Under the pieces are notes generated by a model. That model had not been told where the DNA came from. It searched no databases and saw only the letters and a list, made by a program, of their open reading frames with translations. From an uncultured Candidatus Saccharibacteria bacterium (GTDB lineage: Bacteria; Patescibacteriota; Doudnabacteria; UBA920), in assembly GCA_964561085.1 (NCBI GenBank), contig CAZLNP010000004.1, positions 15,580-79,579 of the forward strand: 64,000 bases of DNA. The letters are read 5' to 3'. Shown here piece by piece: positions 10,467 through 61,306 of this stretch (position 1 is its first letter; each line of letters begins with the position of its first letter). Made by a program: the position numbers and the translations under genes.

Positions 10467-10503
10467 ATTGTTATATCTATTCTGTTTATATTATATACGA
10501 AAA

Positions 10504-11667: not shown

Positions 11668-11739
11668 GATTTGTTTTAATTTTTGTATCTAGAGTTTCAG
11701 GGCTTCGCTAATTAGTTTTCGTAACTAAGCAGTAACCGT

Positions 11740-12825: not shown

Positions 12826-12957
12826 TTTCTTGAGGGTTTCTTGGCTAAAATAGCCTATTTATAACGATAAACCGATTATAACATATATTTCATAACGTGT
12901 CAAACAATGTGGGATAATAAAAAACACTGCAGAGGCAGTGTCTTTTGTAAGGCATAT

Positions 12958-13848
12958 TTAGCGCTTTCGGTTCTTCCAGTTCTGGAATAGTACTAGAATA
13001 GGTGCGGCTACGAAGATTGAGGAATATGTTCCTGCAGCGATACCAATAAACAGAGCTAGTACGAAGTATCGAATTGTTTCCCCACCGAACATAAGCATGG
13101 CAAGTAAAACAAATAGAACAGTTAAGCTAGTATTTAATGAACGGACTAGAGTTTGAGAGATACTGTGATTAACAATGAACTCTACTGACTGCCCGGCATA
13201 GACTTTTAAGTTTTCACGGATACGGTCAAATACAATGATTGTGTCATGAACAGAGAAACCTAACACAGTTAGAATCGCCGTAACGAATAGGCTATCTACT
13301 TCTACATTATAGAAGTGCCCAAGTAGTGAGAAGATTCCTAGAACGATCAATAAGTCATGAACAAGGGCAATAATAGCGGCTAATCCGAATTGCCATGGTG
13401 TGATTGGTCTAGCTACTTTTCGGAATGCATAAGCGATATACAATACAATACCAAGAGAAACTAATAGTAACTGGTATATAGCCTTTTTCTTTAGCTCTTC
13501 ACCTACAACTGGACCGAATGAATCAAAACGCTTTTCTGTAAATTCCCCTACTTGTGAGCGAATATCAGCATTCATTTTATCGTGTTGCTCTTTTTCCAAG
13601 CTCTCAGTACGGATAATTACACCTTTTTCACCAGTTAGCTGTAATTGGTAGTTTTGGATACCTCCAGCTTCAAGAACGCTGCGAAGTTTGCCTTGATCAA
13701 TCGTTTGTTGGAATTCTATTTCGCTAACAGTACCTCCTTTAAAGTCGATACCAAGTTTTAGACCAAAAACTGCTAGTGAGGCTATTCCCAAAATTAAAAT
13801 GATTCCAGAGATAGCGAATAAGTATTTGTAGTAGTTAAGTAATCTCAT
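12958..13848 (-). CDS. secF: Protein translocase subunit SecF
   Basis: Six-TM SecF architecture with conserved SecF motifs, immediately downstream of secD. Confidence 0.9.
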   Translation of the reverse strand: MRLLNYYKYLFAISGIILILGIASLAVFGLKLGIDFKGGTVSEIEFQQTIDQGKLRSVLEAGGIQNYQLQLTGEKGVIIRTESLEKEQHDKMNADIRSQVGEFTEKRFDSFGPVVGEELKKKAIYQLLLVSLGIVLYIAYAFRKVARPITPWQFGLAAIIALVHDLLIVLGIFSLLGHFYNVEVDSLFVTAILTVLGFSVHDTIIVFDRIRENLKVYAGQSVEFIVNHSISQTLVRSLNTSLTVLFVLLAMLMFGGETIRYFVLALFIGIAAGTYSSIFVAAPILVLFQNWKNRKR

Positions 13849-13849
13849 A

Positions 13850-15370
13850 TTAGTTTGCTGATGTATTAATTTGATCTTTTCTACGCATACTGACTCCGAA
13901 TAGCCATGGGTGCGACATTACTTTCCCAGTTACAAACAATTTTAAGAATGTTCGAGTAATAGTGATGGCTGTGAACATGGAAATTAAAATACCAATAGCC
14001 AAAGTTACAGCGAACCCTCTGATTGAAGGTGTGCCAAACATATAAAGAATCAATGTTGTAATAAGACTAGAGACGTTTGAGTCACGAATAGAAAGCCAGG
14101 CTCTAGCGAACCCATCATCAATCGCTTTATTAATGTCTTTACCTGCACGAATCTCTTCTTTAAGACGTTCAAAGATTAGGATGTTAGCATCTACGGCCAT
14201 TCCAATAGAAAGAATGAATCCCGCAATACCAGCTAAAGTTAGAGTTACTGGAGAAACACCATTTAAGAAGATTAAGGCCACATAGCTAATTAAAGCCAAG
14301 AATCCAAACCATCTGCTAACTGTGAGTCCGAGCAGGAAAAATACTCCAACTAAAATTACGGCAGTGATTGAAATTCCGATTTTAAATACTGCGATAGATA
14401 GTAATACGTAAACTAATAAGGCAAACACTGCTAGAACACCTGGGAAGCGATAGTTTGCAACCATAAAGATTACAATCAAGAGCATACCAATTAACCCGGC
14501 AATTATGGATTTATCAATTGATTCTTGGCCTAGAGTTGCACCAACGTTTTGCTGAGAAATTAGTTTAATAGGTACTGGCAAAGCTCCAGAGTTAAGGCGA
14601 GTAGCTAATTGTTTTGCTTCTTCTGCTGTAAAGCTACCAGTAATTACAGCCTCACCGTTAGTAATTGCGCTTTGTACGGTTGGGGCACTTAGTACTTCTC
14701 CGTCCAAGAAAATAGCAATTTGCTTACCAATGTTTGCTTGAGTTAGTTCGCTAAATAGCTTGGTTCCTTCTTCATCAAATTGCAAACGAACAACAACTTC
14801 GTTGCTTACGCTCCCCGCTCCTGCGGCTTGTATATCAGCAGTTGCTCTCTTTAATTGCTTTCCTGAAAGACCAGTTGTTTGCCACCCTGCAGCTGCGATT
14901 GGATCAATGGACCCAAGGTCAATTTGTCCATCAGCACCTACACCAGCCATGGTTGGAGTTGGTTCCCCTTCGGTGCGGAATTCCATCAATGGAGTTTGTC
15001 CGATTTGCTCAATAGCTTTATTTACATCATCAATGCCTGGAAGCTCAACTACAATTTGATCTCTTCCTTGAACTTGAACAAGGGGTTCAGATACCCCGAA
15101 ACTGTTAACTCGGCGTTCGATTGTATCGCGAACTGAAGTTAAAGCATCTTTTTGATCAGCATCTTCTACATCTTTAAAGTCTGCCTGGTAAACTAAGTGA
15201 GATCCACCCTGCAAATCCAAGCCTAAATGAGTAGTGAAGCTTTTTTGGAAGTTAATTCCAATTTTAGAAAGGTTGATTCGGCTTCCATTTGGCCAAACAA
15301 TCCACGCAGCAGCTAATGCAATAAGCATAATTCCTGCCAAAAGCGAGATTTTTGTTAATATTGATTTCAT
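13850..15370 (-). CDS. secD: Protein translocase subunit SecD
   Basis: N-terminal TM, a large periplasmic domain (LDLQGGSHLVYQAD) and a C-terminal six-TM bundle. Adjacent to secF. Confidence 0.9.
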   Translation of the reverse strand: MKSILTKISLLAGIMLIALAAAWIVWPNGSRINLSKIGINFQKSFTTHLGLDLQGGSHLVYQADFKDVEDADQKDALTSVRDTIERRVNSFGVSEPLVQVQGRDQIVVELPGIDDVNKAIEQIGQTPLMEFRTEGEPTPTMAGVGADGQIDLGSIDPIAAAGWQTTGLSGKQLKRATADIQAAGAGSVSNEVVVRLQFDEEGTKLFSELTQANIGKQIAIFLDGEVLSAPTVQSAITNGEAVITGSFTAEEAKQLATRLNSGALPVPIKLISQQNVGATLGQESIDKSIIAGLIGMLLIVIFMVANYRFPGVLAVFALLVYVLLSIAVFKIGISITAVILVGVFFLLGLTVSRWFGFLALISYVALIFLNGVSPVTLTLAGIAGFILSIGMAVDANILIFERLKEEIRAGKDINKAIDDGFARAWLSIRDSNVSSLITTLILYMFGTPSIRGFAVTLAIGILISMFTAITITRTFLKLFVTGKVMSHPWLFGVSMRRKDQINTSAN

Positions 15371-23417: not shown

Positions 23418-24863
23418 TTATACCATCAGATCTTGGGCAAGGAGGTTAAAGTTGCCCACAGCCATCACAATAACTACATCACCTGGCTTTAATTCGCCCT
23501 TAAGTAAGGCTAAAGCTGCTTTTTTATCCTCAACTAAGCGAACATGTTCATGGCTTTTGCCAATAGCCTCTACCACTTGAGCGCCTGTAATACTTTCCGC
23601 GGTTTTCACTTCACGAGCAGGATAGATTTCTGCCAGAAGAACTTCATCTGCCGATCCAAAAGACTTTGCCAACTCTTCTAAAGTCGCAGATGTTCGACTG
23701 TAAGTATGAGGTTCGAATACAGCCCAGATTTTCTTGTCTGGAAACTTAGTGCGAGCGGCTTTAAGTGTTTCTAAAACAGCTGTTGGGTGATGCGCATAGT
23801 CATCATAGATTGTTACTCCATTGTTTTTTCCAATGAGTTCAAAACGACGCTTAACTCCATAGTAAGAAGAGATTCCATCTTGAACTTGCTCTTGAGAGAA
23901 TCCTAAAGTGCGTAGCAATGCGATTACTCCTAAAGCATTGTAAACGTTAATATCACCAAATAAATTTATCTGGTAGTTTTCAATAATTGGTTCGGTCTTT
24001 TCGGTTGTACCTGGTTTGATCTTTGTCCAAGCTACATCAAACGATGTACCTGTTTCATCTGCAACCAAATTGGTCGCTCGGAAGTCAGCCGGATTATTTA
24101 ATGCAAAGGAAACTTGACCGACATTATTTTCATGCATCAACATTGCAAGTGATATATCATCTGCGTTGTAGACAGCGACTCCATCACTTGGAAGAGCTGC
24201 AATCAGTTGGCGGAACTCATCTTGCATTTCTTCTAATGAAGAGAAAATATCTGGATGGTCAAACTCTAAATTGGTTAGAACTAAAATATCTGCTTTGTAC
24301 TGATGGAACTTAGGAATTGGATCATCATAAAGTGCTTTGTATTCATCGCCTTCGAACACAAAATAGTGTCCTTCTCCAACATGAAAGTTTGTTTCTTCGT
24401 GCTGAAGAACTGCACCAGTCATATATGAAGAGTCATCAATTTCTTGTAAAGTTTTCCCAAGCATTCCAGTTGTGGTTGACTTCCCATGAGTTCCCGCAAC
24501 AACAACGCGCAATTTTTCTTGAGAAAGAGCTGCTAAAAGTTCACTGAAAGAATGAACTTGAATTCCGCGCTCAACTAAGTAAGCCACTTCAGGGTTCGAT
24601 TCGCTTTCCCCAGAAGAAGCGATGTACAAATCTGCAGAGTTATCCTGAATGTTTTCTATCGCATAACCAGCAACGTATTCTATGCCGTTTGATTCTAAAA
24701 CTTGTTTTGCCGGGTCGTATAACTCTTTACTATCACTCCCACGCACCTCAAAGCCTAGTTGAGCGGCAATACCAGCAGCTGCTGACATTCCTACACCACC
24801 AATACCAATGAAATATATGGATTTAACTCCTTCTAGGAGATCTAGATTTTCTGAATATGTCAT
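23418..24863 (-). CDS. murC: UDP-N-acetylmuramate--L-alanine ligase
   Basis: N-terminal YFIGIGGVGMSAAA and the Mur ligase P-loop AGTHGKSTTTGML. Length is 481 aa. Confidence 0.85.
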   Translation of the reverse strand: MTYSENLDLLEGVKSIYFIGIGGVGMSAAAGIAAQLGFEVRGSDSKELYDPAKQVLESNGIEYVAGYAIENIQDNSADLYIASSGESESNPEVAYLVERGIQVHSFSELLAALSQEKLRVVVAGTHGKSTTTGMLGKTLQEIDDSSYMTGAVLQHEETNFHVGEGHYFVFEGDEYKALYDDPIPKFHQYKADILVLTNLEFDHPDIFSSLEEMQDEFRQLIAALPSDGVAVYNADDISLAMLMHENNVGQVSFALNNPADFRATNLVADETGTSFDVAWTKIKPGTTEKTEPIIENYQINLFGDINVYNALGVIALLRTLGFSQEQVQDGISSYYGVKRRFELIGKNNGVTIYDDYAHHPTAVLETLKAARTKFPDKKIWAVFEPHTYSRTSATLEELAKSFGSADEVLLAEIYPAREVKTAESITGAQVVEAIGKSHEHVRLVEDKKAALALLKGELKPGDVVIVMAVGNFNLLAQDLMV

Positions 24864-24865
24864 AC

Positions 24866-25942
24866 CTAATCATTAATTGTAGTTTTTAGTAAACTCTTCA
24901 CTTTTTCTTCGCGACTATTTAACTCACTCTCTTTATCGGACAGTAGCTGCCAAAGTCCGGGAAGGTTTTGTAATGCCACTCTTCTCCCTGCTTTATAGTA
25001 TTCTTCAGTGCTACTGAAATCTGTGAAATGTAAATATAGATAACGTTTCCAAAAAGTAGGTGGCGCAACATCTGGAGTAAGGATTATATCGCAATTATAA
25101 TTTTCATCTTTTTCTTGCTCTTTCTGAGCTTTAATAGCCAGACCAATGGCTTTATCTAAAACTGTAAAGATACCAGGATACAAAGTCTTATCGTGTAAGC
25201 GGTCTACATTTTCATAAGCACCTAGAGCATCTTCATAATCTAAAATGCCTTTAAAGTTTCTCCAAAGTTGATTAATCTGACTAGGCCACAATATCTGCTT
25301 AATTAAATCAAGACTCTTTTTCAGCATGATTTGCCACGAGCTAAATATGTGCCTAGTTGCACGCATATCTACACCAATTACAACATCCATGTTCGCCTCA
25401 CGCGCTACGTTTCCTGGCACTATGTTAATTATACCTCCATCAAGGAGTTGTTTATTCCCCCATTCAAAAGGCTGGAAAACTCCCGGCAATGTGCAAGATG
25501 CGCAAACAGCTTTGGCTATATCACCAACTTGTAAAGTCACCTCAGAGTTTTTAGGGTCTGTAGCAGAGATATCAGTTGTAACAAAACTTAATCTTGGGTT
25601 CACTTCTTCAAACTTTTTGTTCTTTGTATAAACTCGAAGCAAAGCTTCAACTTTATCTAAATGATATAAACCTCCACGGCCCTTGCTTCTTTCAATTAAA
25701 TTGAAAATTAGCTCTTTGTCCATTCCCAAAGCCATTTGTTTAAGAGCAGGCAAGGTACCGCAAGCAAAACTTGCAGCCACTACTGCGCCACCAGACATTG
25801 CTGAAATGTAATCAATTGGAAAACCATTCTCTTCAAGGACCTCTAAGAACCCAATGTAAAAGACGCTGCGTGAAGAAGCACCGCTGAAAGCAAATCCAAC
25901 CGTCGGTCTATTGTTTGAATGTGGAATACTGTTTCTATTCAT
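24866..25942 (-). CDS. Patatin-like phospholipase
   Basis: GxSxG-type nucleophile elbow (SAMSGGA) plus the DGG catalytic-dyad motif (LLDGGIINIVPG). Confidence 0.65.
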   Translation of the reverse strand: MNRNSIPHSNNRPTVGFAFSGASSRSVFYIGFLEVLEENGFPIDYISAMSGGAVVAASFACGTLPALKQMALGMDKELIFNLIERSKGRGGLYHLDKVEALLRVYTKNKKFEEVNPRLSFVTTDISATDPKNSEVTLQVGDIAKAVCASCTLPGVFQPFEWGNKQLLDGGIINIVPGNVAREANMDVVIGVDMRATRHIFSSWQIMLKKSLDLIKQILWPSQINQLWRNFKGILDYEDALGAYENVDRLHDKTLYPGIFTVLDKAIGLAIKAQKEQEKDENYNCDIILTPDVAPPTFWKRYLYLHFTDFSSTEEYYKAGRRVALQNLPGLWQLLSDKESELNSREEKVKSLLKTTIND

Positions 25943-27086
25943 GAATAACTTTCTTTATTACAGTTAACATTTTTTCTGTTGCATTAGGCGGCATTATTGA
26001 GTGGATATTCTTTTGCATTTCTTCCTGAAGCTCTTTGTCGAAGAGGATTTTACGAACACCTTTTGCTAAAGTATCTGGGGTTATATCCTTTTCATCTAAA
26101 ATAATGGCTGCGTTTTTATCGTATAAATACTGAGCGTTCCACTCTTGGTGAGTTTCTGGCATTGGCACAATAATACTAAGTTTTCGCAAAGCAGACAATG
26201 CCGTAATAGCCCCTATACCTGCCCGGCTAATTACAATGTCAGCTGCCATGTATGCCTGATCAACTTTGTTAATGAACTCGTATTGATGATACCTGTCGTG
26301 GCCATGCGCTATGTCTATGGCCGGATTAATCAACTTCCCTGGTCCAGTACTATGAATAACCTGGGCAACTTTCAAAAGCTCGGGCAAGTTATGCTCCAAT
26401 GCCGCATTTAATCCTCGGGCTCCGCTGCCACCACCAATTACTAATACTGTCGGCCAATCGTGATCGAGCTTAAATAAATTACGAGCGACATTTCTTTCTT
26501 CATCTGTTGGGGAAACGTTATTTAGTTCTGTTGGGTTACCGGTCCACTCAATTTTTGTATATTGTGAATAGTTTTTTTCAAAACCTGAACCTTGAGGAAA
26601 ATCCTTTAATGATTTTTCAAATGTTGTAGTTACTTTATTTGCAAAAGGGGTACAAATTCTATTTGAAAATGTGGGGACTATATCTTGTTGATGAATCACT
26701 CTCGGGATTCTTAGAAGCCATGCTGCGACTATAACTGGGACTTGAACATAACCGCCAGCACCAACAACTACCTTCGGCTTTAGAGCTAGCAACAAAATAA
26801 GCGACTGTATTAACCCAATTAAAGTTAAAAAGGGTGAAACAATATTTTTAAAAGACCAATAGCGCCGGAGTTTGCCTGAAGTGATTTTTTTAAATTTGTA
26901 GCCACGGGCTGGAACAATTCTAGCTGCTACTGAATTCTTTATATCCAAAAAGACTGGCTCAATCTTTGAGTCTTGTTTAATCCACGCATCAGCCAAAGCT
27001 AATAATGGCATTACAGGTCCAGCTGTTTCACCGCCAACAAAGATTACTTTTTTTGTTTTATTTATACTATTCATTTTCTGGTTCAA
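25935..27086 (-). CDS. murG: Undecaprenyldiphospho-muramoylpentapeptide beta-N-acetylglucosaminyltransferase
   Basis: GT28 N-terminal motif (VIFVGGETAGPVMPLLALA) and C-terminal GGSGARGLN. Confidence 0.8.
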   Translation of the reverse strand: MNQKMNSINKTKKVIFVGGETAGPVMPLLALADAWIKQDSKIEPVFLDIKNSVAARIVPARGYKFKKITSGKLRRYWSFKNIVSPFLTLIGLIQSLILLLALKPKVVVGAGGYVQVPVIVAAWLLRIPRVIHQQDIVPTFSNRICTPFANKVTTTFEKSLKDFPQGSGFEKNYSQYTKIEWTGNPTELNNVSPTDEERNVARNLFKLDHDWPTVLVIGGGSGARGLNAALEHNLPELLKVAQVIHSTGPGKLINPAIDIAHGHDRYHQYEFINKVDQAYMAADIVISRAGIGAITALSALRKLSIIVPMPETHQEWNAQYLYDKNAAIILDEKDITPDTLAKGVRKILFDKELQEEMQKNIHSIMPPNATEKMLTVIKKVIHE

Positions 27087-28227
27087 AATTTGTTTGTCTA
27101 GTTTGATTTTTACCTACTGCTTTATTGTACACTTCCAATGTTTGCTTAGCGGTTTCTGCCCAGTCGAAGTACCGTACCCGAGCAATACTCTTTTGTTGCA
27201 TTTGAGCATGGAACTGTGTGTCTTGCGAAACTAACTTCATATGCTCAGCAATATCCTCTGGATCTAATGGGTCAAAGTAAATAGCGCCGTTGTCGTAAAC
27301 CTCATTAAAGACTTCTGTGTTTGATGCCAGTACAGGTAGCCCATAACGCATAGCTTCAAGCCCTGGCAAGCCAAAGCCTTCGTGAAGCGAAGTTGTAATG
27401 AAAGCATAAGCACCCTGGTATAAAGCAGCTTGATCTTCATCTTCTACAAATCCCGTCAGAACCAAGCGGTTTCTGTGAGAGATATCCATAATCTGATCTT
27501 TAATTTCTGGATAGTGCGAATCAACTTTACCTGCGATCACCAAGTCCATATCGAACTTGTATTTGCTAAGGAACAAGTCGAAAGCTTTCGCAAGCATTGG
27601 AATGTTCTTTTTTCTTTCCAAAGTTCCCACGAATAGAAAATATGGTCGGCTTAGTAAATACTTTTCCTTAACTTTTTCTATATTAGCCGGCGCCACTTCT
27701 TGATCTGTCGGGGCTTCGTACGTAACAATAATCTTTTCTGGATCAACTTCTAAATACTTTACGATTTCTTTCTTAGCCGATTCAGTCACAGTGATTATGA
27801 CTTTTGCATTTTCTGCCGCTTTCTTAATTAAATATTGATACGCATAGAACTTCCAGACTCTAGACTTCTTATGACCGCTAATCTTGTGGTGTACCATGTC
27901 GTGAATTGTCACTACATATGGTTTTTTATATCTAAGCGGTACATTAAAATTTGGAAAATGCATTAAATCCAAATCGTACTTGTTTAAAATTTTAGGCAAG
28001 GATAATTGCTCGCCAAATGAATAGTGCCGTATATTAGTTTCGACTAATTCTGCTCCCAACTTTTTCAGAGCTTTTAAATCATTCGGGTTGTAATTTTTTT
28101 TGTTATAAAAAACAAAATATTGATTATCCGGATTTAGCTCGATCATGTGAGTGAGCAACTCAAAACTATACCGGCCTAAGCCCGCATTGATACTACCACC
28201 CATTCTAAAATCAAATCCGATTTTCAT
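27067..28227 (-). CDS. Glycosyltransferase family 4
   Basis: EX7E motif region EGFGLPGLEAMRYGLPVLASN. Confidence 0.8.
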   Translation of the reverse strand: MKIGFDFRMGGSINAGLGRYSFELLTHMIELNPDNQYFVFYNKKNYNPNDLKALKKLGAELVETNIRHYSFGEQLSLPKILNKYDLDLMHFPNFNVPLRYKKPYVVTIHDMVHHKISGHKKSRVWKFYAYQYLIKKAAENAKVIITVTESAKKEIVKYLEVDPEKIIVTYEAPTDQEVAPANIEKVKEKYLLSRPYFLFVGTLERKKNIPMLAKAFDLFLSKYKFDMDLVIAGKVDSHYPEIKDQIMDISHRNRLVLTGFVEDEDQAALYQGAYAFITTSLHEGFGLPGLEAMRYGLPVLASNTEVFNEVYDNGAIYFDPLDPEDIAEHMKLVSQDTQFHAQMQQKSIARVRYFDWAETAKQTLEVYNKAVGKNQTRQTNFEPENE

Positions 28228-28233
28228 CTTACT

Positions 28234-29415
28234 TTAGTGTATTACTGATTTAATAATTGCTGCGCACTTTGTCCAAGTAAAAAGTTTGCTACGCTCAATC
28301 CCCTTTGCTGAGTAATACTGGCGAAGCTGATCATCAAGATGCAAGCGGGTCAGCCCTTCAGCGATATCAGAAACATTGTATGGATTTATTAGCAAAGCAG
28401 AGTCACCGGCTACTTCTGGCAAACTTGAAACATTTGAAGTCAAAACTGGGGTACCTACGGCCATCGCCTCTAATACTGGTAATCCAAATCCTTCGTACAT
28501 ACTTGGATATGCAAATACTCGGGCCAACTTCATAATATATGGTTTATCTGCTTCAGGTACGTAACCCAACAGTTTAATGAAACGGCGCTTAGGACTTTGG
28601 TCGATCTGTCTTAATAATGCAGAATACTTCCAGCCAAGTCTCCCAGCAATCACCAATGAGATTGGTTCTTTCACCTGCTCCAAAGCTTCAATCAAACGGG
28701 ATAAGTTTTTCCTAGGCTCTACAGTCCCAACAAATAGTATGAAATCACCTGGTAATCCGTAACGATTCCGAACATCTCTTAGCTTATCAACACTTAAATT
28801 AGGTCGGTAGTTGTCATGGTCGACACCTAAAGGAGCAACAGTAATTTTGTGCTCAGGGATATTCAGCATCTCCATCATCGAAGTTTTAGTGAATTCGGAG
28901 ACTGCTACAAGGTTATTAGCTCGCGCTAAGAGTTTTGGAATGTTAATAAACCAATGCCAGATTCTTGCTTTCAAATTATAGAATTGCGGAACTGCTAATG
29001 GCGATAGGTCATGGACCGTTAATACAACTTTTGTACCGGGATCTACAGAAAGCATATTCCAATTTGGCATAAACAAAACATCACAAAGTCCAGTAAGCTT
29101 TTCTAACTTTGGGTAACTAAAAAACTTCAAAGATAGATTTAGTAACCTATTTGGTATGCGTGTCTGTTTGTACTGTGCATTAATGTAGTGAAAGTATTCA
29201 AACTTCTTAGGATTAAAGCCATTGTAAAACAATCGGTAAATAGTATCACGATCTTCTGCGAGCAATTCCTCTAAAACATTAACAGCGAAGCTTTCGACGC
29301 CACTAAATTCAGAAGCATGTAGGCTGCGCAAATCTACAGCAATGTTTTTTGCATTACCTGTTTTAGGAAGATGAGGAGCCACTTCAATATTTAGCTGGGT
29401 ACTGATTTCTGGCAT
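28234..29415 (-). CDS. Glycosyltransferase family 4
   Basis: EGFGLPVLEAMAVGTPVLTSN. Confidence 0.8.
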   Translation of the reverse strand: MPEISTQLNIEVAPHLPKTGNAKNIAVDLRSLHASEFSGVESFAVNVLEELLAEDRDTIYRLFYNGFNPKKFEYFHYINAQYKQTRIPNRLLNLSLKFFSYPKLEKLTGLCDVLFMPNWNMLSVDPGTKVVLTVHDLSPLAVPQFYNLKARIWHWFINIPKLLARANNLVAVSEFTKTSMMEMLNIPEHKITVAPLGVDHDNYRPNLSVDKLRDVRNRYGLPGDFILFVGTVEPRKNLSRLIEALEQVKEPISLVIAGRLGWKYSALLRQIDQSPKRRFIKLLGYVPEADKPYIMKLARVFAYPSMYEGFGLPVLEAMAVGTPVLTSNVSSLPEVAGDSALLINPYNVSDIAEGLTRLHLDDQLRQYYSAKGIERSKLFTWTKCAAIIKSVIH

Positions 29416-30494
29416 TACTTACTCATAAATTTATTTATGTACGAAGTTAGTTTTCGTTGAAATTCCTGCTTACTAAACTTCAGTGAGTGGGACTTTAGAT
29501 TTTCTTTACTATATTTATTTTCATCCCAAACATTTAAAGCAGTAATTAAATTTTCAACATCTACTTTTTCTAAGAGCTCACCAGTTTGACCTGGTATAAC
29601 TGTTTCTAAAGAACCACCCTTAGCTAATCCTAAGGTTGCTGTGCCACAACTCGCAGCCTCTAATGGCATCAAACCAAAGTCTTCTAGTTGAGGATAAATA
29701 AAACCTCTAGCGCCACTGTATTGATGTCTCAAAGATTCATCGTCTACTTTACCTAAGAAAATAATGTTTGAGCCTGCGATAGAGCGCAAATATTTTTCAT
29801 AACGACCAGTACCAATTACGTGCAGCGGCCAACCTAGTTTATTAAAAGCTAAAATAACTTTATCGTAATCTTTGTATGGGGTTAATCGACCAGCAATTAA
29901 AAAGTAATCTCCCTTTTCTCTAGTTGGAGACCAGAACTCAACATCGATGAACGGATGCAAAATTTCGCTATCGCGGTTGTAATACTTCTTCAATCTCGAT
30001 TGCACTTCTAAGCCGTTCACTAAAAAGTGATCTACTTTTTGAGCAGCATTGTAGTCCCACTTTTTTAACCACCACAAGTAAAGCTTTGCAATAGGTCTAA
30101 GCAAAGGAGTAACTTCGTGTAGAGCATATTCATAGTCTGTCCAAATGAATCTAGTCGGTGTGTGGCAATAATCAACATGAACCATGCCTTTAGTTTTTCG
30201 CAATCCTTTTAAGTATGCAGAACTTGAACTCAACAACAAATCAGCTTTCTCTAATTTCCAAAATGGCAGAATGAACGGAATGAGCCCGAATAAATGCTGC
30301 ATATTGCCATACACGTTGTAAATTTTTTGAAGTGGACTTGTGATTACATTCCAATCACTTATATGCCACTTCATTCTTTTATCGACAACTAAAGTGTAAA
30401 CCGGAGCATCTGGATACAAATCTTTCATACCTTCAAGAACGCGTTCGGCGCCGCCATATTGCGTGTATGAATCGTGAGCGAGAATAACTTTCAT
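29415..30494 (-). CDS. Glycosyltransferase family 4
   Basis: C-terminal EDFGLMPLEAASCGTATL GT4 motif. Start and stop overlap neighbours, suggesting an operon. Confidence 0.75.
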   Translation of the reverse strand: MKVILAHDSYTQYGGAERVLEGMKDLYPDAPVYTLVVDKRMKWHISDWNVITSPLQKIYNVYGNMQHLFGLIPFILPFWKLEKADLLLSSSSAYLKGLRKTKGMVHVDYCHTPTRFIWTDYEYALHEVTPLLRPIAKLYLWWLKKWDYNAAQKVDHFLVNGLEVQSRLKKYYNRDSEILHPFIDVEFWSPTREKGDYFLIAGRLTPYKDYDKVILAFNKLGWPLHVIGTGRYEKYLRSIAGSNIIFLGKVDDESLRHQYSGARGFIYPQLEDFGLMPLEAASCGTATLGLAKGGSLETVIPGQTGELLEKVDVENLITALNVWDENKYSKENLKSHSLKFSKQEFQRKLTSYINKFMSK

Positions 30495-30510
30495 AAATTA
30501 GTGAGATGCT

Positions 30511-31947
30511 TTAATAGTTATCTTTTGGTTTGCGAGTGAATAGCAACATATAGAATGACTTGATAATTATCTTTATGTCCCAAATCAAACTCCAATTTTC
30601 AATATAGTAAGTGTCTAGTCGGATTTCTTCCTCGAAAGGTAGATTCGGCCTAGAAAGCTGAGCAATCTGAGTTAGTCCAAAAATCCCTGGCTTGATACTA
30701 AACACACGACCATAGTGCTGTCTGTATTTTTCAACTTGCTCCGGCATATGAGGTCTTGGACCAATCATACTCATATCGCCAATTAGTACGTTCCAGAACT
30801 GTGGAATTTCATCTAACTTACTCTTACGCAAAAACTTTCCTATTGGGGTAATTCGAGGGTCATCTTTAATTTTCCACAAAGGCCCACTGCGATCATCATC
30901 TTTCACTTGCTCTAGAAGATCATGCAAAACTTTTTGCGCCTGCTCATCACCATAGCCCTTACCGGTACTCAAATGAGTATACATAGAACGGAACTTATAG
31001 AATTCAAACTCCCTTTTGTAACCGCTGCGAGTATGTTTGTAGATTCCCGGACCAGGACTAGTGACTCGAACTGCAATGTAAATAATTAAAGAGATTGGAG
31101 CTGTAATAATGAGACAAACTAAACTAGCGACTATATCCAATAGGCGCTTAATGACTTTCCCCCATCCTTCAAGAGGAGTATTTTTTAATTTGATGATTGG
31201 TATGCCTTTGAAGTTATCTAACTCAATTACATTGCGCTGGACTTCGAACAGGTTTGGAACGAAACTAAATTGCAAACCATGGCGGCGTACAAACTCTAAC
31301 AAGTTTAAATTTTGAGCGCTGGTTGCATGAGGGTTGGCCTGCATTATCTCATCTATGCCAGTGGTTTTTAGAAGTTCTTCTAACTTACTAATTACTTGAT
31401 CGTTGTTGTCTAATTCGCCTACTACTTTGTAGCCGTGAGATTTATTCGATAGAAACTGTTCAATTACACTGGCTTCACTACCACTTCCATCAACGACAAT
31501 TAATCTGTGAAGTCCATAACCACGTCGGAACATCGCTTCTTGAATTCTTTTTAAAACTATTCTTCCAAAAAGGATGAAAAGAATTCCCAACGCCCAAGCA
31601 GTTAATATAATGAAACGAGACGGGAAAATTGATTGATCAAAAAAGAAAAGTACTACTGCAAAAAGCATTCCTAAGGATGTGCCGACAAAAATTCTATTGA
31701 ACTCATGAATGAAACGTCTTGTTCCTCGAAGCTTGTAAAGACCAAGTAGTGCAAACACTAGCAGCAAGATAGGAATTACCTTAACCAAAACCAGCAAAAA
31801 GTCTTGGAGTTCTAAGGTGTACATAACCTTCCCAATATAATCCTCTGAGTATAAACGCAAGTAAAACGAAACTATGCCGGCGGCGGCCAGCATAAGAATA
31901 TCTACAGGGATGGAAATTAAATTAAAGAGTAGTTCTGTGCGCTTCAT
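30511..31947 (-). CDS. Polyprenyl-phosphate glycosyl-1-phosphate transferase (WbaP/CpsE-like initiating sugar transferase)
   Basis: N-terminal TM helices and a central CoA-binding-like domain. The C-terminal bacterial sugar transferase domain carries KRLLDIVASLVCLII...PGPGIYKHTRSGYKREFEFYKFRSM. Confidence 0.8.
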   Translation of the reverse strand: MKRTELLFNLISIPVDILMLAAAGIVSFYLRLYSEDYIGKVMYTLELQDFLLVLVKVIPILLLVFALLGLYKLRGTRRFIHEFNRIFVGTSLGMLFAVVLFFFDQSIFPSRFIILTAWALGILFILFGRIVLKRIQEAMFRRGYGLHRLIVVDGSGSEASVIEQFLSNKSHGYKVVGELDNNDQVISKLEELLKTTGIDEIMQANPHATSAQNLNLLEFVRRHGLQFSFVPNLFEVQRNVIELDNFKGIPIIKLKNTPLEGWGKVIKRLLDIVASLVCLIITAPISLIIYIAVRVTSPGPGIYKHTRSGYKREFEFYKFRSMYTHLSTGKGYGDEQAQKVLHDLLEQVKDDDRSGPLWKIKDDPRITPIGKFLRKSKLDEIPQFWNVLIGDMSMIGPRPHMPEQVEKYRQHYGRVFSIKPGIFGLTQIAQLSRPNLPFEEEIRLDTYYIENWSLIWDIKIIIKSFYMLLFTRKPKDNY

Positions 31948-32048
31948 GAATAACTGTTATATTTGCCATTATACCACTTTTAGACCTATTTTCCTAATGA
32001 CTTTCTAGCTTACAACACCCTTCAAATTATGTTAAAATACAGTAAATT

Positions 32049-33092
32049 ATGATGGAACCTAAATACAACACAGCCATTCTTTTCGGCGGAAATGGATTTA
32101 TTGGCAGCAACTTCGCCGCCTATTTACTAGATAACAACATTGCAAAAAAAGTTATTATTAGTGACCTCGGTACAATTACACCAGACCTTTGGCCAAAGAG
32201 TCTACAAAGACGCTTCGCAGCTGGTGAAATTGATTACGTAAAGATTGACGTACGCAAGCCTTTTCATGCTCAAGAAGAGTCGAATAAGCTACCAACACAA
32301 GTAGATTTAATTGTAAATTTAGCAGCAGTCCACAAAGAGCCCGGCCACGTGGCGGAAGAATATTTTAAAACAAACTTACCTGGCGCAGAGAATGTTTGCG
32401 ATTGGGCTAGCATTGTAGATTGTAAGAGCATCTTGTTCACAAGCTCCATCGCAACGTATGGTGGTGCTGAAAACACTAAAGATGAAGACTCATTAACAAT
32501 GCCAAACACTCCGTATGGGGTTTCAAAATTAACTGCTGAGAAAATTCATATTGCTTGGCAACAAGCTAAGCCAGGTCGCAAACTTTTAATTACGCGCCCA
32601 GGAGTTATTTTTGGTGCTAACGAACGTGGTAATGTAACTAGGATGGTTAAAGCGGTGCTGGGACATTATTTCTTTTTCACAGGGAATCAAAATGTTCGCA
32701 AAGCTGGCGGCTACGTAAAAGAGCTTTGTCGGGCAATGGCTTTTATGCTGAAGTGGCAAGATGAGCACAACGAAGGCCTAACCTTGTTTAACTTTACTAT
32801 GGACCCTGCGCCAAGCGTTGGAGAATACGCTGAAGGAATAAAAAAGATTGCTGGAGTTAAAAGAGCAACACCGAACGTCCCATTTAGAATTTTACTTTTA
32901 GGGTCCTACTTCGTTCACTTCTTAAACAAGATGCTCGGCAGAAAGCAGTCCATTAGTCCGGTCACTGTAAGAAAAGTCCTGAAATATAACAACATCAGTC
33001 CGAAGATTTTAAAGAATCTTGATTATAAGTATGAATATACTTTAGAAAGCGGCCTAGCTGATTGGTACAAAGAGCGTCCTCAGGACTGGTAA
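32049..33092 (+). CDS. NAD-dependent epimerase/dehydratase (SDR, extended)
   Basis: N-terminal GGNGFIGSNF Rossmann motif and a YxxxK region (TPYGVSKL). Divergent from the sugar-transferase operon. Confidence 0.8.
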   Translation: MMEPKYNTAILFGGNGFIGSNFAAYLLDNNIAKKVIISDLGTITPDLWPKSLQRRFAAGEIDYVKIDVRKPFHAQEESNKLPTQVDLIVNLAAVHKEPGHVAEEYFKTNLPGAENVCDWASIVDCKSILFTSSIATYGGAENTKDEDSLTMPNTPYGVSKLTAEKIHIAWQQAKPGRKLLITRPGVIFGANERGNVTRMVKAVLGHYFFFTGNQNVRKAGGYVKELCRAMAFMLKWQDEHNEGLTLFNFTMDPAPSVGEYAEGIKKIAGVKRATPNVPFRILLLGSYFVHFLNKMLGRKQSISPVTVRKVLKYNNISPKILKNLDYKYEYTLESGLADWYKERPQDW

Positions 33093-33114
33093 AGGGCTTA
33101 TTTTAGCGTATTTA

Positions 33115-33143
33115 TTGACAATACGCCCAAAATGTGGTAATCT
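33115..33143 (+). promoter_or_regulatory. Promoter for rnpB: TTGACA, 17-nt spacer, TAATCT
   Basis: Direct read of hexamers and spacing. The -10 is weaker than consensus. Confidence 0.45.
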
Positions 33144-33147
33144 TTTG

Positions 33148-33497
33148 AGGTTCCAAGCAAATCGAATGATCGCCCTAAGCGCGCGAAAGCTGCTGCTGGG
33201 GAGGAAAGTCCGAACACTTAGTTGATAGCCTCTATAGAGTTATTAACAATGGTAGCGGGTAACACCCGTCGAAGGTAACTTCAGAGATGCGAACAGAGAC
33301 GCGTTAATCAGAAATGATTGCGCACCCCACTAAGTTGGTTGGGTGAATCGATATGGAAACATATCGGGTGAAACGGCTAAATTCTTACTTGAGTGCAATG
33401 CCAAATTAGGTAGGCAGCAACGAGGTCGTTGGCAACAACGATCCCAGATAGATGATCATTTAGAAACAGAATTCGGCTTACGAGTTTGCTTGGGACA
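33148..33497 (+). ncRNA. rnpB: RNase P RNA, bacterial type A
   Basis: Conserved P4 5' strand GGAGGAAAGTCCGAAC, J11/12-like GGGTGAAACGG, and the 3' conserved ACAGAATTCGGCTTA. An 11-bp P1 pairs ttccaagcaaa (33151-33161) with tttgcttggga (33485-33495). Confidence 0.8.
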
Positions 33498-33502
33498 AAA
33501 CA

Positions 33503-33548
33503 AAAACACACAATTTGTTTTTTAAATAGTGTGTTTTTGTTTTGATTC
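33503..33548 (+). terminator. Intrinsic terminator after rnpB (caaaaacacac...gtgtgtttttg, then a T-run)
   Basis: Inverted repeat followed by ttttgtttt. Confidence 0.5.
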
Positions 33549-33574
33549 GAAGTACAGATTTTAGGAGGTGATAT

Positions 33575-33802
33575 ATGTCGAGTGAAAATTTGGATGTTAA
33601 AGTGTATTCAAAAATATTAAGTGCTGGCGCTGGGCTGGGTGGGATTGAATTCGTTTTTAACAACTGGGTTCAATCAGCGTCAAGAAAGTTAAACGAGTTC
33701 AATGAATTCGAAGTAATTAGCGCTAGTCACGCTATATTAGAAGGTCAAACTACAATCTTTGTGGTCTATAAAACAAGCTCGCCGGGACCACATCGCGTTT
33801 AG
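33575..33802 (+). CDS. Small protein, possibly dodecin-like (75 aa)
   Basis: Strong AGGAGG Shine-Dalgarno 6 nt upstream of the ATG. The pattern V.VY.KI....G......W..A.........EFEVI.....LEGQ...F.V.YKT resembles dodecin-family beta-alpha-beta-beta proteins. This is a weak similarity call. Confidence 0.35.
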   Translation: MSSENLDVKVYSKILSAGAGLGGIEFVFNNWVQSASRKLNEFNEFEVISASHAILEGQTTIFVVYKTSSPGPHRV

Positions 33803-33808
33803 TCGATG

Positions 33809-34504
33809 CTACTTCCCCAATCTTCTCTCACGGCGCTCGTAATCAACGAGTGCCTTTTTTAATTCTGGCTTCTTAAAATCTGGCCAAAGAATATCTGTAA
33901 AATAAAATTGACTGTTAGCTATTTGCCACATCATAAACCCTGCTGACCAATGCGGTTCTCCTCCTGTGCGAATAACTAAGTCTACATCTGGTAAATCTGC
34001 AGTCCACAAAGATGATCTAAGGCTCTTACTATTTACGCTATCGCCTTTCTTCACCAAAGAGTTGGCAGCTGCAATCATTTCACGCTGTCCATCGTAGCCA
34101 AATAAAATAGTTAAAGTATTCTTTTTGAAATGCTTGGTTTTATTTTGCAAATCTAAAACTGCTTCTACAACTTTTTTGTCTTTAACAAAGTCTGTCCACT
34201 CACCTAAAACTTTAAATTGCGCCTCATTTTGCAAACACTTATTTAATACATTCGGCTTAGCGATCTCATCTGACATAATCTTAAACAAATAGTTTACCTC
34301 AATGGCAGTTCTCTTTTTTAAGTTTGAATATGATCCACCCCAAAAAGTAACGTTTGGAATTCCTAGATCAAGACACGCAAGTGCTGTTTCCCAAAAACGT
34401 TTAGTCCCTTCTATATGTCCTTCCCACGGATTTAAAAGCCGGGATTCCGCCCAGCGTCTATTTCCATCAGGAATAATTGCAATGTGATTTGGTAAACTCA
34501 TCAA
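33809..34504 (-). CDS. uppS: Undecaprenyl diphosphate synthase (isoprenyl transferase)
   Basis: N-terminal HIAIIPDGNRRWA motif and a C-terminal RTGGE-like region (IRTGGEPHWS). Confidence 0.85.
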   Translation of the reverse strand: MMSLPNHIAIIPDGNRRWAESRLLNPWEGHIEGTKRFWETALACLDLGIPNVTFWGGSYSNLKKRTAIEVNYLFKIMSDEIAKPNVLNKCLQNEAQFKVLGEWTDFVKDKKVVEAVLDLQNKTKHFKKNTLTILFGYDGQREMIAAANSLVKKGDSVNSKSLRSSLWTADLPDVDLVIRTGGEPHWSAGFMMWQIANSQFYFTDILWPDFKKPELKKALVDYERRERRLGK

Positions 34505-35004: not shown

Positions 35005-35068
35005 ATATTTATACGTTAATGGTCATTTAAAGGTAACAAATTTGGGCAATTCACACAATAAAAAAAGA

Positions 35069-35096
35069 ATACCCGTAAGGGTATTCTATCAGTTTT
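35069..35096 (-). terminator. Intrinsic terminator downstream of the surface-protein gene (gaataccc-ttac-gggtattc, then TTTTTTT on the minus strand)
   Basis: Direct read of a perfect 8-bp stem followed by a T-run, on the minus strand. Confidence 0.65.
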
Positions 35097-35876
35097 TTAG
35101 TTAAAGAGTAATTTTCGTTTTCTGACTATCAGGAATCCAGCGGTAAGTAATCCAGCAAATCCATATGGAGCCATTTTATCTACACCTGTGGTCGGGGCTA
35201 AATAGTAAGTTTCAGCACCACCGGAGATTTGAGGTTTAGACGCAGAGTCTGTGGTTGATGAGAATGAAGCTAAAGCTATATTACTAGAACTGCTAGATGA
35301 TGTGCCATACCAATCCCCGAACGAGTTGTTCGAACTTGTAGAATTACTAGCCTGATCAGAATTACTCACACCACTCCATGTTCCAAAGATATCTGAAGAG
35401 TTCGAAGATTGAGTTCCTATGTAGTCAGAGTTATTAACACCAGTCCAATCACCAAAAGGATTGTTTTGTAATGAAGTCTCATTAGAATTATTTACCCCCG
35501 TCCAAGATCCAAAAGTGCTGCTTGCAGAACTAGAAGAATTGCTTGGATTAGAGTTATCAACTCCAGTCCAACCTGCGAAAGGATTAGATGTTGAAGTAGA
35601 TCCTGTAGTAGTTAGATTATTAACGCCGGTCCATCCGCTGAATGGATTATTTGGGTTTGTAGTATTTGTAGTACTAGCAGAGTTATTTACTCCAGTCCAA
35701 CCTTCAAATGGGTTGCTGGAATTTGTTGAACTTAAATTATTTACGCCAGTCCAACCGTAAAAAGGGTCGCTAGAGCTAGAATAACTAGCATTTACTGATG
35801 ATGGCAAAGCAAAAACACCCATAATTATAAGGGTTGTTAGTGATGCGCCAATTTGTTTAAATAATTTTGAGCTCAT
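35097..35876 (-). CDS. Secreted cell-surface repeat protein with a C-terminal LAXTG-type sorting signal
   Basis: Signal peptide, then about nine tandem ~17-20-aa repeats with a core NPF[xG]WTGVNN in Ser/Thr/Asn-rich linkers. The C-terminus has LAPTTG, a hydrophobic stretch and RKRK, a sortase cell-wall sorting signal of the LAXTG (class E sortase) type. Confidence 0.7.
   Translation of the reverse strand: MSSKLFKQIGASLTTLIIMGVFALPSSVNASYSSSSDPFYGWTGVNNLSSTNSSNPFEGWTGVNNSASTTNTTNPNNPFSGWTGVNNLTTTGSTSTSNPFAGWTGVDNSNPSNSSSSASSTFGSWTGVNNSNETSLQNNPFGDWTGVNNSDYIGTQSSNSSDIFGTWSGVSNSDQASNSTSSNNSFGDWYGTSSSSSSNIALASFSSTTDSASKPQISGGAETYYLAPTTGVDKMAPYGFAGLLTAGFLIVRKRKLLFN
35301..35765 (-). repeat. Tandem coding repeats (~51-60 nt unit) encoding the NPFxGWTGVNN motif
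   Basis: Visible periodicity in the translated product. The antisense 99-aa ORF at 35461-35760 is a by-product of this repetition. Confidence 0.7.
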
Positions 35877-35898
35877 TGATGTACGTTATTGATTCGTT

Positions 35899-35927
35899 AT
35901 AATAGCACTTTTTTGCCATTTTGTCAA
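35899..35927 (-). promoter_or_regulatory. Promoter for the surface-protein gene: TTGACA, 17-nt spacer, TATTAT on the minus strand
   Basis: Direct read of the reverse complement of 35899-35927. Confidence 0.5.
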
Positions 35928-35992
35928 TACTCAGCCAATTTAAAAGGCCGCTCATCTAATATACGTGGAGAGCGGCCTTGGTTAGCGCTATA

Positions 35993-42258: not shown

Positions 42259-42332
42259 TGGCACGGGCTGTAGGAATCGAACCTACGCAGCTGGTTTTGG
42301 AGACCAGCGTACTGCCACTATACGAAGCCCGC
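42259..42332 (-). tRNA. tRNA-Trp (anticodon CCA)
   Basis: Reverse complement reads GCGGGCT...CTCCAAA...GGTTCGATTCC...GCCA. The anticodon loop is CTCCAAA and CCA is encoded. A TATAAT box lies just upstream on the minus strand. Confidence 0.85.
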
Positions 42333-42371
42333 AAGTTGCACTACCTATTCAGTCTCATTATAGCAAACCCC

Positions 42372-42388
42372 GCTCGGGGCGGGGCAAT
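42372..42388 (-). terminator. Short GC-rich hairpin (ccccg...cgggg) downstream of rpmG
   Basis: Five-bp GC stem followed by TTTGC on the minus strand. Modest. Confidence 0.35.
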
Positions 42389-42389
42389 A

Positions 42390-42548
42390 CTACTTCTTAG
42401 TTTCTTTGTGAGCTGTCTGAACTTTACAGTGCTTACAAAACTTTTTAATTTCTAGTCTTGCCTGAGTGTTCTTCTTGTTCTTCGTTGTAGCGTAGTTCAA
42501 GTTGTGACACACAGTACATTCTAGATCGATGCGATTATCTTGTGACAT
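42390..42548 (-). CDS. rpmG: 50S ribosomal protein L33 (Zn-ribbon type, 52 aa)
   Basis: Not in the ORF track because it is under 60 aa. Hand-translated: [52 protein letters not shown], with the L33 CxxC...CxxC and TTKNKKNT motifs. Confidence 0.85.
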
Positions 42549-42589
42549 AAAAATTCTTAATTCTACTTAATCTGATAGATTAACTTTTC

Positions 42590-42665
42590 TGGAGCCGGCT
42601 GTCGGACTCGAACCGACCACCTACGGTTTACAAAACCGTTGCTCTACCGGATGAGCTAAGCCGGC
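42590..42665 (-). tRNA. tRNA-Thr (anticodon TGT)
   Basis: Reverse complement GCCGGCTTAGCTCATCCGGTAGAGCAACGGTTTTGTAAACCGT...GGTTCGAGTCC...CCA. The anticodon loop is TTTGTAA. Confidence 0.9.
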
Positions 42666-42765
42666 ATAGTGCTCCCCAAAGGGTGCTAATAGCCTTCTTA
42701 TCAGCTCCAAATTAACTTTAAAATTCTAACATAAACCCTTGTAAAAGTCCAGCCTGTGGATTAAA

Positions 42766-42789
42766 AAAAACACCTTTCGGTGTTTTTTC
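42766..42789 (-). terminator. Intrinsic terminator after tRNA-Tyr (aaaaaacacc-gaaa-ggtgtttttttt on the minus strand)
   Basis: Perfect 10-bp stem followed by a T-run. Confidence 0.7.
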
Positions 42790-42876
42790 TGGTGGGCCGG
42801 ACAGGATTCGAACCTGTGAAGGCATAAAGCCGGGAGATTTACAGTCTCCAGTGTTTGACCGCTCCACAACCGACCC
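42790..42876 (-). tRNA. tRNA-Tyr (anticodon GTA), type II with long variable arm
   Basis: Reverse complement GGGTCGG...GGAGACTGTAAATCTCC...GGCTTTATGCC...GGTTCGAATCC...CCGGCCCACCA. Confidence 0.9.
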
Positions 42877-42911
42877 AAATTCTCAATTAACAGTGCGCTC
42901 TAGCACTAAGC

Positions 42912-42987
42912 TGGAGCCGTTGTGCGGGATCGAACCGCAGACCTTCTCCTTACCATGGAGATGCTCTACCAACTGAGCTACAACGGC
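42912..42987 (-). tRNA. tRNA-Thr (anticodon GGT)
   Basis: Reverse complement GCCGTTGTAGCTCAGTTGGTAGAGCATCTCCATGGTAAGGAGA...GGTTCGATCCC...CCA. The anticodon loop is ATGGTAA. Confidence 0.9.
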
Positions 42988-61299: not shown

Positions 61300-61306
61300 C
61301 TTATTA

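Follow-up and report, generated by a model that had tools for sequence, protein, structure and literature searches.

The sequence analysed here, referred to as the window, is a stretch of 64,000 nucleotides (64 kb) of contig CAZLNP010000004.1 from a Candidatus Saccharibacteria genome (assembly GCA_964561085.1). On its minus strand, the window contains a gene encoding a protein of 259 amino acids (aa) which shows a Sec signal peptide, an array of NPFxGWTGVNN repeats and a C-terminal tail of the sortase-signal type, with the motif APxTG (Table 1). Only one open reading frame (ORF) was found on the minus strand of this interval, and an identical gene is present on two Logan contigs. Comparison with its 94%-identical ortholog in locus L006 gives synonymous changes at 27 codons and non-synonymous ones at 16, which points to purifying selection, and sequence comparison indicates that the repeat-protein gene is real. 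The gene is preceded by a sigma-70-type promoter, whose -10 hexamer is 22 nt from the ATG, with no obvious Shine-Dalgarno sequence in these 22 nt, and is followed by a bidirectional intrinsic terminator. Since a second hairpin, on the other side of the promoter, terminates the upstream gene encoding an 87-aa membrane protein, the repeat-protein gene forms an insulated monocistronic unit. A TTGAC[AC]-17-TATxxT/TAGAAT promoter with 10-11 of 12 matches is located 5' of the eight diverse orthologs examined (TTGACA in seven of them), and a hairpin with a T-run is located 3' of the gene in eight of eight, so that these expression signals cannot be put down to local chance. In L006, whose coding region differs, the promoter, leader and terminator show 100% identity, and the hairpin of the upstream gene keeps its stem, with a variable loop. 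The original prediction had assigned the gene its own promoter and terminator, and both are borne out by the 11 of 12 promoter matches, the folding of the hairpins and the conservation at eight orthologs; from these signals, the gene is probably strongly expressed.

The signal peptide, MSSKLFKQIGASLTTLIIMGVFALPSSVNA followed by SY, shows a basic n-region with K4 and K7, the h-region ASLTTLIIMGVFAL and the c-region PSSVNA. The family alignment shows almost no variation at P25 and A30, and AlphaFold2 predicts a helix at residues 3-22. No lipobox Cys is present in the signal peptide, and a lipoprotein was rejected for this reason. The repeat array announced in the original prediction is present, with eight copies instead of about nine, at a spacing of 18-23 aa and separated by Ser/Thr/Asn-rich linkers. 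Seven of them are clean (F-x-x-W-[TS]-G-V-[NDS]-N) and one is degenerate (FGDWYGT), and all fit F-x-x-W-[TSY]-G-[VT] within the consensus N-P-F-x-G/D-W-T-G-V-N-N. The pattern F-x-x-W-[TSY]-G matches the protein eight times, and only five of 20000 shuffles of the protein show two or more matches. In the best-aligned copy, F, G, W and G are invariant across the family. The mature body (residues 31-222) contains 27% Ser, 15% Asn, 12.5% Thr, 10% Gly and one Lys. AlphaFold2, run with the family alignment, gives a mean predicted local distance difference test score (pLDDT) of 54, with the repeat body below 50 throughout and only the two terminal helices (the one in the signal peptide and that of residues 236-252) confident; the repeat body is thus predicted to be largely disordered. 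No Pfam family matches the window protein and no relative was found in the PDB.

Repeat number, which the original prediction expected to vary between strains, ranges from 2 to 14 across the family and is unchanged among the close relatives available, the 94%-identical ortholog being equally long. Copy-number change driven by slippage is unsupported, because Tandem Repeats Finder detects no DNA-level tandem array in the gene, the DNA copies of the repeat being too diverged. Further identities were tried and rejected. A sortase-assembled pilin does not fit a mature region with a single non-conserved Lys, no YPKN-like motif and no predicted folded domain, and choline-binding or GW-type wall-binding repeats show no Pfam match. 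The NCBIfam model NF050106 ("MazE antitoxin, Deinococcus type") scores 22 bits on the repeats against a cutoff of 65, probably as a coincidental short-motif match; this sub-threshold match covers residues 67-87 of the window protein and recurs in 12 of 29 homologs.

The C-terminal tail of the window protein is YYLAPTTGVDKMAPYGFAGLLTAGFLIVRKRKLLFN, with the stop codon after residue 259. In an alignment of 29 sequences, at 40-50% overall identity, P228, T230, G231, F240, A241 and R254 are invariant, and the tripartite signal is kept in 41 family members. Within the helix, the position-frequency table shows a family-conserved F-A-G-L-L-T-x-G-F. Of the 41 repeat-family members that bear the tail, 100% have A, P, T and G at their places in A-P-x-T-G; the residue at position -1 is V (90%) or I (10%), and that at position -2 is F or Y. 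The Leu at position -1 is unique to the window protein, and its 94%-identical ortholog reads YYVAPTTG. Because these four residues never vary, whereas V or I stands at the "L" position, the register is (L->A)-P-x-T-G, and alignment identifies the conserved motif as [FY]-[VI]-A-P-x-T-G, an LPXTG-type box that has Ala in place of Leu and retains Pro. Position 1, which is Leu in LPXTG, is thus an invariant Ala. The other elements of such substrates are found: a tripartite C-terminal layout with P-x-T-G, a hydrophobic stretch and a terminal basic tail, and an N-terminal Sec signal peptide with its n-, h- and c-regions. The surface protein with a sortase-type tripartite signal that the original prediction had described is recovered (APTTG, helix and RKRK), together with a Sec signal peptide, and the conservation pattern indicates that the sorting signal is under selection. 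TIGR01167 (LPXTG_anchor) is matched weakly by eight of 29 family members, with a best E-value of 0.026, and NF033846 ("NPXTG-anchored protein") is matched weakly by 10 of 29.

A search of a large protein database gave 30 homologs (E = 1e-41 to 1e-10). All the named homologs and genome loci are metagenome-assembled genomes of Candidatus Saccharibacteria or "Patescibacteria group", and the episymbiont lineage supposed in the original prediction is identified as Candidatus Saccharibacteria. Saccharibacteria live attached to other bacteria. Most orthologs have about 400 aa and contain, after the signal peptide and ahead of the repeats, a domain of some 170 aa (GDIKxxKEVR...VEVxIEVKNTS...VCG...). 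This domain is DUF11/CLIPPER-like, with TIGR01451 at E = 1e-5 in two members. The window protein, its 94%-identical ortholog and a few others (P0016, P0029 and P0050) lack it and contain only the repeats and the anchor; when inspected for a DUF11-type domain (PF01345 / TIGR01451), the window protein passes from the signal peptide directly into the repeats. The window protein has either lost the N-terminal DUF11-like domain or never gained it.

The tail is also found on proteins of other architectures. A HMMER search with the family profile against 1.84 billion representatives gave 431 matches, with 138 new representatives listed, and the profile retrieves hundreds of multi-DUF11 surface proteins. 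A strict tail pattern (A-P-x-T-G, hydrophobic stretch, basic tail) is present in 65 of the 138 new representatives listed, and a looser count that includes the homologs of the first search gives 41 repeat-family proteins and at least 59 APxTG proteins of other architecture. These are mostly of 500-1800 aa and bear multiple domains of the DUF11/CLIPPER, PKD-like and isopeptide-forming (TIGR04226) types. APKTG is the ending most often found among the non-repeat proteins, and APTTG, APPTG, APRTG, APQTG and APETG also occur. Other endings among the new representatives listed are LPxTG (four), IPxTG (five) and a few SPxTG or PPxTG. TIGR01167 aligns to the APxTG tails from the Pro onward, and two of the APKTG proteins, P0134 (17.6 bits) and P0073 (16.2 bits), exceed its cutoff of 15.9. 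As far as these sequences go, APxTG is a shared sorting signal and not a quirk of the repeat family. A profile of the 48-aa tail only gave no match at E <= 1 in a database of 5.8 billion proteins, because it is too short for a database of such size.

One of the APTTG proteins, P0081, is encoded on a complete 943-kb genome (CP064996.1) with Saccharibacteria-type gene order. It belongs to a second conserved Saccharibacteria locus for APxTG proteins, found in L014, L015 and L016, which shows LexA, a small ORF, the big APxTG protein, and then a sugar-nucleotide epimerase or Bac_transf gene. The proteins of this locus have 1000-1300 aa, are multi-DUF11/CLIPPER, with PKD-like or isopeptide domains in addition, and end in APTTG or APKTG. 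No sortase was found within 10 kb of the large Saccharibacteria APxTG proteins P0155, P0081 and P0134. In L020, a 205-aa protein is encoded directly after an APKTG protein and ends in YKAPSSG, a transmembrane (TM) segment and a weak basic tail. This APxSG variant may reflect tolerance of Ser at the Thr position or a decayed signal.

Sortase genes adjoining APxTG genes were found in other members of the candidate phyla radiation (CPR). Metagenome contigs were scanned with a DNA pattern back-translated from G-x-F-[VI]-A-P-K-T-G, which gave 120 loci, about 110 of them chance matches. About nine of the 120 carry a genuine C-terminal signal, and three of these (L076, L055 and L031) show a sortase-domain protein near the substrate. 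Two more sortase-APxTG loci, L143 (868 kb; L143/L144) and L145 (1.21 Mb), were reached through the sortase itself. The sortase gene is directly 5' of the APxTG substrate in L076, L143, L145 and L031, and in L055 one gene is located between them. APxTG substrates and an unclassified sortase are thus physically linked in CPR, in five contigs. The adjacent substrates are large DUF11/CLIPPER proteins of 600-1400 aa, ending in FIAPKTG, FTAPTTG, FVAPKTG or VVAPPTG. The sortases have 380-460 aa, with an N-terminal extension of about 300 aa and a single TM segment, and they show the motifs ISGHSS, LSTCWP and R-[LY]-V-[VI]. They score 69.7 (L076) and 76.3 bits (L055) with PF04203, whose cutoff is 26.6, and E = 1e-48 to 1e-93 in all five loci with a local CPR-sortase hidden Markov model (HMM). 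With the NCBIfam class models they reach 45-50 bits for class C, 45 for class D, 35-42 for class E and 17-26 for class F, against cutoffs of 160-166, and the class A and B models give no match. Their closest named relatives are annotated as "sortase [Candidatus Doudnabacteria bacterium]", and the named matches among the best 120 of 418 all belong to Doudnabacteria or Patescibacteria group. A gene encoding a CAP-domain protein is transcribed divergently at the sortase loci L076, L143 and L145.

The gene order around the repeat-protein gene is fixed in five lineages, in which it is located directly 5' of uppS or, as in the window, separated from it by one small gene. The syntenic block contains the repeat protein, the optional small gene, uppS, an epimerase (missing from L012), Bac_transf, three GT4, GT28, patatin and murC. 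An O-methyltransferase gene is located a few genes 5' of the repeat protein and adjoins it in one lineage only. In the window, the block corresponds to an envelope-glycan cluster, assigned by synteny with L003, L012 and L013. The constant adjacency of a Ser/Thr-rich protein to a glycan cluster could reflect glycosylation, or merely a conserved core gene order. Otherwise the window consists of core chromosome, with murD, mraY, ftsW, secA, secDF, dnaE, rpsB, tsf, prfA and thrS, together with the RNase P RNA and four tRNAs. The RNase P RNA gene is located in the interval that separates the epimerase gene from uppS, so that several of the short ORFs listed by program at this position are spurious. 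The window also contains two slightly overlapping ADK-like genes in tandem, a TrwB/VirD4-like type IV coupling protein gene beside an ORF of 387 aa without a Pfam match, this pair being situated within an otherwise cell-wall and secretion gene neighbourhood, a DUF4012 protein gene at the window edge, and two further ORFs without a Pfam match, the longer of which is directly 3' of a second ftsW/rodA paralog.

Table 1. Features of the repeat-protein gene, of the rest of the window and of the related loci (positions refer to the window unless a locus is named).
Feature	Position	Strand	Basis or remark
Coding sequence of the repeat protein, 259 aa, ATG start (signal peptide, repeat body, C-terminal sorting signal)	35097..35876	-	ORF and homologs
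Sec signal peptide, aa 1-30	35787..35876	-	read from sequence; cleavage predicted between VNA and SY
Repeat body, aa 37-195, eight [ND]-P-F-x-G/x-W-T-G-V-N-N copies	35292..35768	-	motif scan
Sorting motif A227-P228-T229-T230-G231 (APxTG), preceded by Y-Y-L	35184..35198	-	family alignment
Hydrophobic membrane-spanning helix, aa 236-252, PYGFAGLLTAGFLIV	35121..35171	-	AlphaFold2 helix, pLDDT 83-95
Stop-transfer tail RKRK (253-256) and conserved LLFN end, aa 253-259	35100..35120	-	R254 invariant
Sigma-70-type promoter TTGACA-17 nt-TATTAT, extended -10 TG	35899..35927	-	11/12 matches
Bidirectional intrinsic terminator (stem of 9 bp, loop of 4 nt, a T-run on either strand)	35066..35087	.	-13.5 kcal/mol, z = -3.7
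Terminator hairpin of the upstream 87-aa membrane-protein gene	35944..35979	-	-21.9 kcal/mol, z = -3.4
Envelope-glycan cluster: uppS, NAD-dependent epimerase (+), Bac_transf priming transferase, three GT4, GT28 (MurG-like), patatin, murC	23418..34504		synteny
RNase P RNA, class A	33154..33496	+	Rfam RF00010, 114.6 bits, full-length match
DUF4012 protein, 719 aa	13..2172	-	
TrwB/VirD4-like type IV coupling protein and adjoining ORF of 387 aa	8697..11667	-	PF10412 (coupling protein); no Pfam match (ORF)
tRNA cluster Trp(cca), Thr(tgt), Tyr(gta), Thr(ggt)	42259..42987	-	
ORF of 139 aa	48207..48626	+	no Pfam match
ORF of 297 aa	50977..51870	-	no Pfam match
ADK-like gene	60640..61365	-	PF00406, E = 1e-22
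ADK-like gene	61307..61921	-	PF00406, E = 1e-30
Second APxTG locus, L015 (CP064996.1)	10001..13990		
Second APxTG locus, L014	9377..12634		
Second APxTG locus, L016	10001..12961		
APxSG protein, L020	1790..2407		
CPR sortase, L076	5180..6565		PF04203 / local HMM
CPR sortase, L143	10001..11329		PF04203 / local HMM
CPR sortase, L145	10001..11368		PF04203 / local HMM
CPR sortase, L055	4975..5454		PF04203 / local HMM
CPR sortase, L031	7193..8326		PF04203 / local HMM

The explanation favoured here, and considered fairly likely, is that the window gene encodes a Saccharibacteria-specific cell-surface protein, exported by Sec, anchored by a sortase through APxTG and bearing a disordered repeat stalk. 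Several observations weigh against it. TIGR01167 gives the window protein 11.7 bits, under the cutoff, and the TM segment (FAGLLTAGF) varies less than is usual in classical LPXTG signals, so that a different membrane-embedded partner is conceivable. No sortase was found in the window (Pfam models run on nearly every ORF of 100 aa or more, motif scan and the local CPR-sortase HMM), in some 250 kb of sequence flanking Saccharibacteria loci (L001-L022), or within 10 kb of the repeat-protein gene at 13 Saccharibacteria loci, and the adjacency of sortase and substrate was seen only in CPR that are Doudnabacteria-like by their nearest named matches, not in Saccharibacteria. For Saccharibacteria the sortase link is one that we infer, and the presence of a sortase in the genome of the window is deduced from one literature report, that of a complete TM7 genome with sortases and predicted sorted proteins (PMC3812714). 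A sortase family is present in more than half of the CPR genomes (PMC6744442). The absence of a sortase from every Saccharibacteria sequence examined would suit a plain tail-anchored surface protein, held by its C-terminal TM segment, in which the conserved juxtamembrane APxTG box always stays uncleaved; so would the "patchily detected" sortases of CPR groups other than Microgenomates (PMC6744442) and the sequence conservation of the TM segment, which classical sortase signals do not require. Nevertheless, the invariant residues coincide exactly with P, T and G of sortase motifs, the layout at the extreme C-terminus is tripartite, the same tail is present on unrelated architectures and beside sortase genes in other CPR, and sortases are reported in the complete TM7 genome, and we regard a simple tail anchor as unlikely.

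A membrane enzyme other than a sortase, recognising APxTG together with the FAGLLTAGF helix in the manner of exosortase/PEP-CTERM, rhombosortase/GlyGly-CTERM or myxosortase/MYXO-CTERM, would account for a TM helix conserved across architectures and for the lack of a sortase near any Saccharibacteria substrate examined. This is quite improbable, as no candidate enzyme is consistently linked to the APxTG genes, the linked gene in other CPR encodes a canonical sortase-domain protein, and the motif, which matches TIGR01167, differs from LPXTG by a single substitution. The original prediction had read the tail as an LAXTG signal handled by a class E sortase, of the actinobacterial housekeeping type, and the window sequence does happen to read L-A-P-T-T-G. 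This assignment is abandoned as nearly untenable: LAPTTG has six residues, one too many for L-A-x-T-G; in place of L226 the 94%-identical ortholog has V and the 41 family members have V or I, with Pro228 invariant; class E motifs swap Pro for Ala, whereas here Pro is kept and Leu is swapped; and the CPR sortases beside APxTG substrates score far below the class E cutoff (34.7 and 41.7 bits with NF033747, cutoff 160).

Its sequence signals show the gene to be transcribed alone, from the near-consensus promoter to the intrinsic terminator, and suggest a high level. From its sequence features, the product would be exported by Sec, with the signal peptide cut after VNA30. The mature body of about 190 aa is predicted to be an extended, uncharged, low-complexity chain rich in Ser, Asn and Thr, which the eight aromatic NPFxGWTGVNN motifs would punctuate as "stickers" every 20 residues or so. 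Under sortase anchoring, the precursor would be retained in the membrane by its C-terminal helix and RKRK tail, and a sortase-family transpeptidase would recognise [FYL]-[VIL]-A-P-x-T-G, or more narrowly [FY]-[VI]-A-P-x-T-G, a Leu-to-Ala variant of LPXTG typical of the lineage, cut after Thr230 and join the Thr to peptidoglycan, a step suggested by the conservation of the motif, its sharing across architectures and the sortase adjacency in sister lineages. The anchored chain may then contribute to a dense surface brush or stalk, possibly a glycosylated one, which in most orthologs would bear an N-terminal DUF11/CLIPPER-like beta-sandwich domain and in the window protein would consist of stalk and anchor only. 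Glycosylation by the neighbouring polyprenol-dependent glycan cluster, binding of wall polymers through the Phe/Trp motifs, and contact with the host are speculative roles, and so are the glycosylated fibril, the adhesin and the host attachment of the original prediction. A wider proposal, made tentatively, is that Patescibacteria including Saccharibacteria use a distinct, so far undescribed sortase clade for [FY]-[VI]-A-P-x-T-G, marked by the long N-terminal extension, the motifs ISGHSS and LSTCWP and the lack of fit to the class C-F models, and that the repeat protein is among its few conserved, highly expressed Saccharibacteria substrates and would form a disordered, perhaps glycosylated brush at the host interface.

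To our knowledge, very little is known about the surface decoration of Saccharibacteria apart from type IV pili. A conserved gene with a fixed place beside the envelope glycan cluster and strong expression signals makes the repeat protein a reasonable candidate for a major envelope component. The APxTG tail provides a simple rule for predicting a CPR wall-anchored proteome that searches with the LPXTG pattern miss, and it points to natural sortases with a specificity that engineers evolved in Staphylococcus aureus SrtA at a cost in activity (PMC8248031). Its relevance is moderate and concerns the envelope biology of CPR and, possibly, the engineering of sortases.

Compared with the LPXTG signal of Gram-positive sortases (TIGR01167), the window family shares the P-x-T-G box, the approximately 20 hydrophobic residues, the Arg/Lys cluster and the N-terminal Sec signal, but it shows an invariant Ala at position 1, preceded by an aromatic residue and then V or I, and conservation of both the TM helix sequence and the C-terminal LLFN. 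The NPXTG-anchored proteins of Ruminococcus (NF033846) likewise keep P-x-T-G and change the first residue alone, whereas the window family has Ala, a Patescibacteria lineage and other cargo. The (S/P)PXTG of Clostridioides difficile is also a position-1 variant. Class E signals of Actinobacteria (LAXTG) are similar as Ala-containing variants of LPXTG, but there Ala replaces Pro and in the window family it replaces Leu, with Pro invariant. The body resembles the Ser-rich repeat or stalk regions of Gram-positive LPXTG adhesins, with a long, uncharged, Ser/Thr/Asn-rich and predicted-disordered region before the anchor. The aromatic-Gly motifs every 20 residues or so recall FG-repeat low-complexity domains, in resemblance only, and no Pfam or NCBIfam repeat family shows sequence similarity to the window repeats. 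In the searchable literature no description was found of a natural APxTG signal or of the NPFxGWTGVNN repeat family, APxTG appearing only for engineered sortases, and APxTG is apparently an undescribed natural variant of LPXTG common to many CPR surface proteins. The S. aureus SrtA variants F40 and A1-22, which are laboratory mutants of reduced activity, were engineered for APxTG substrates (PMC8248031); they share the target motif with the window family, which, unlike them, would represent a natural system.

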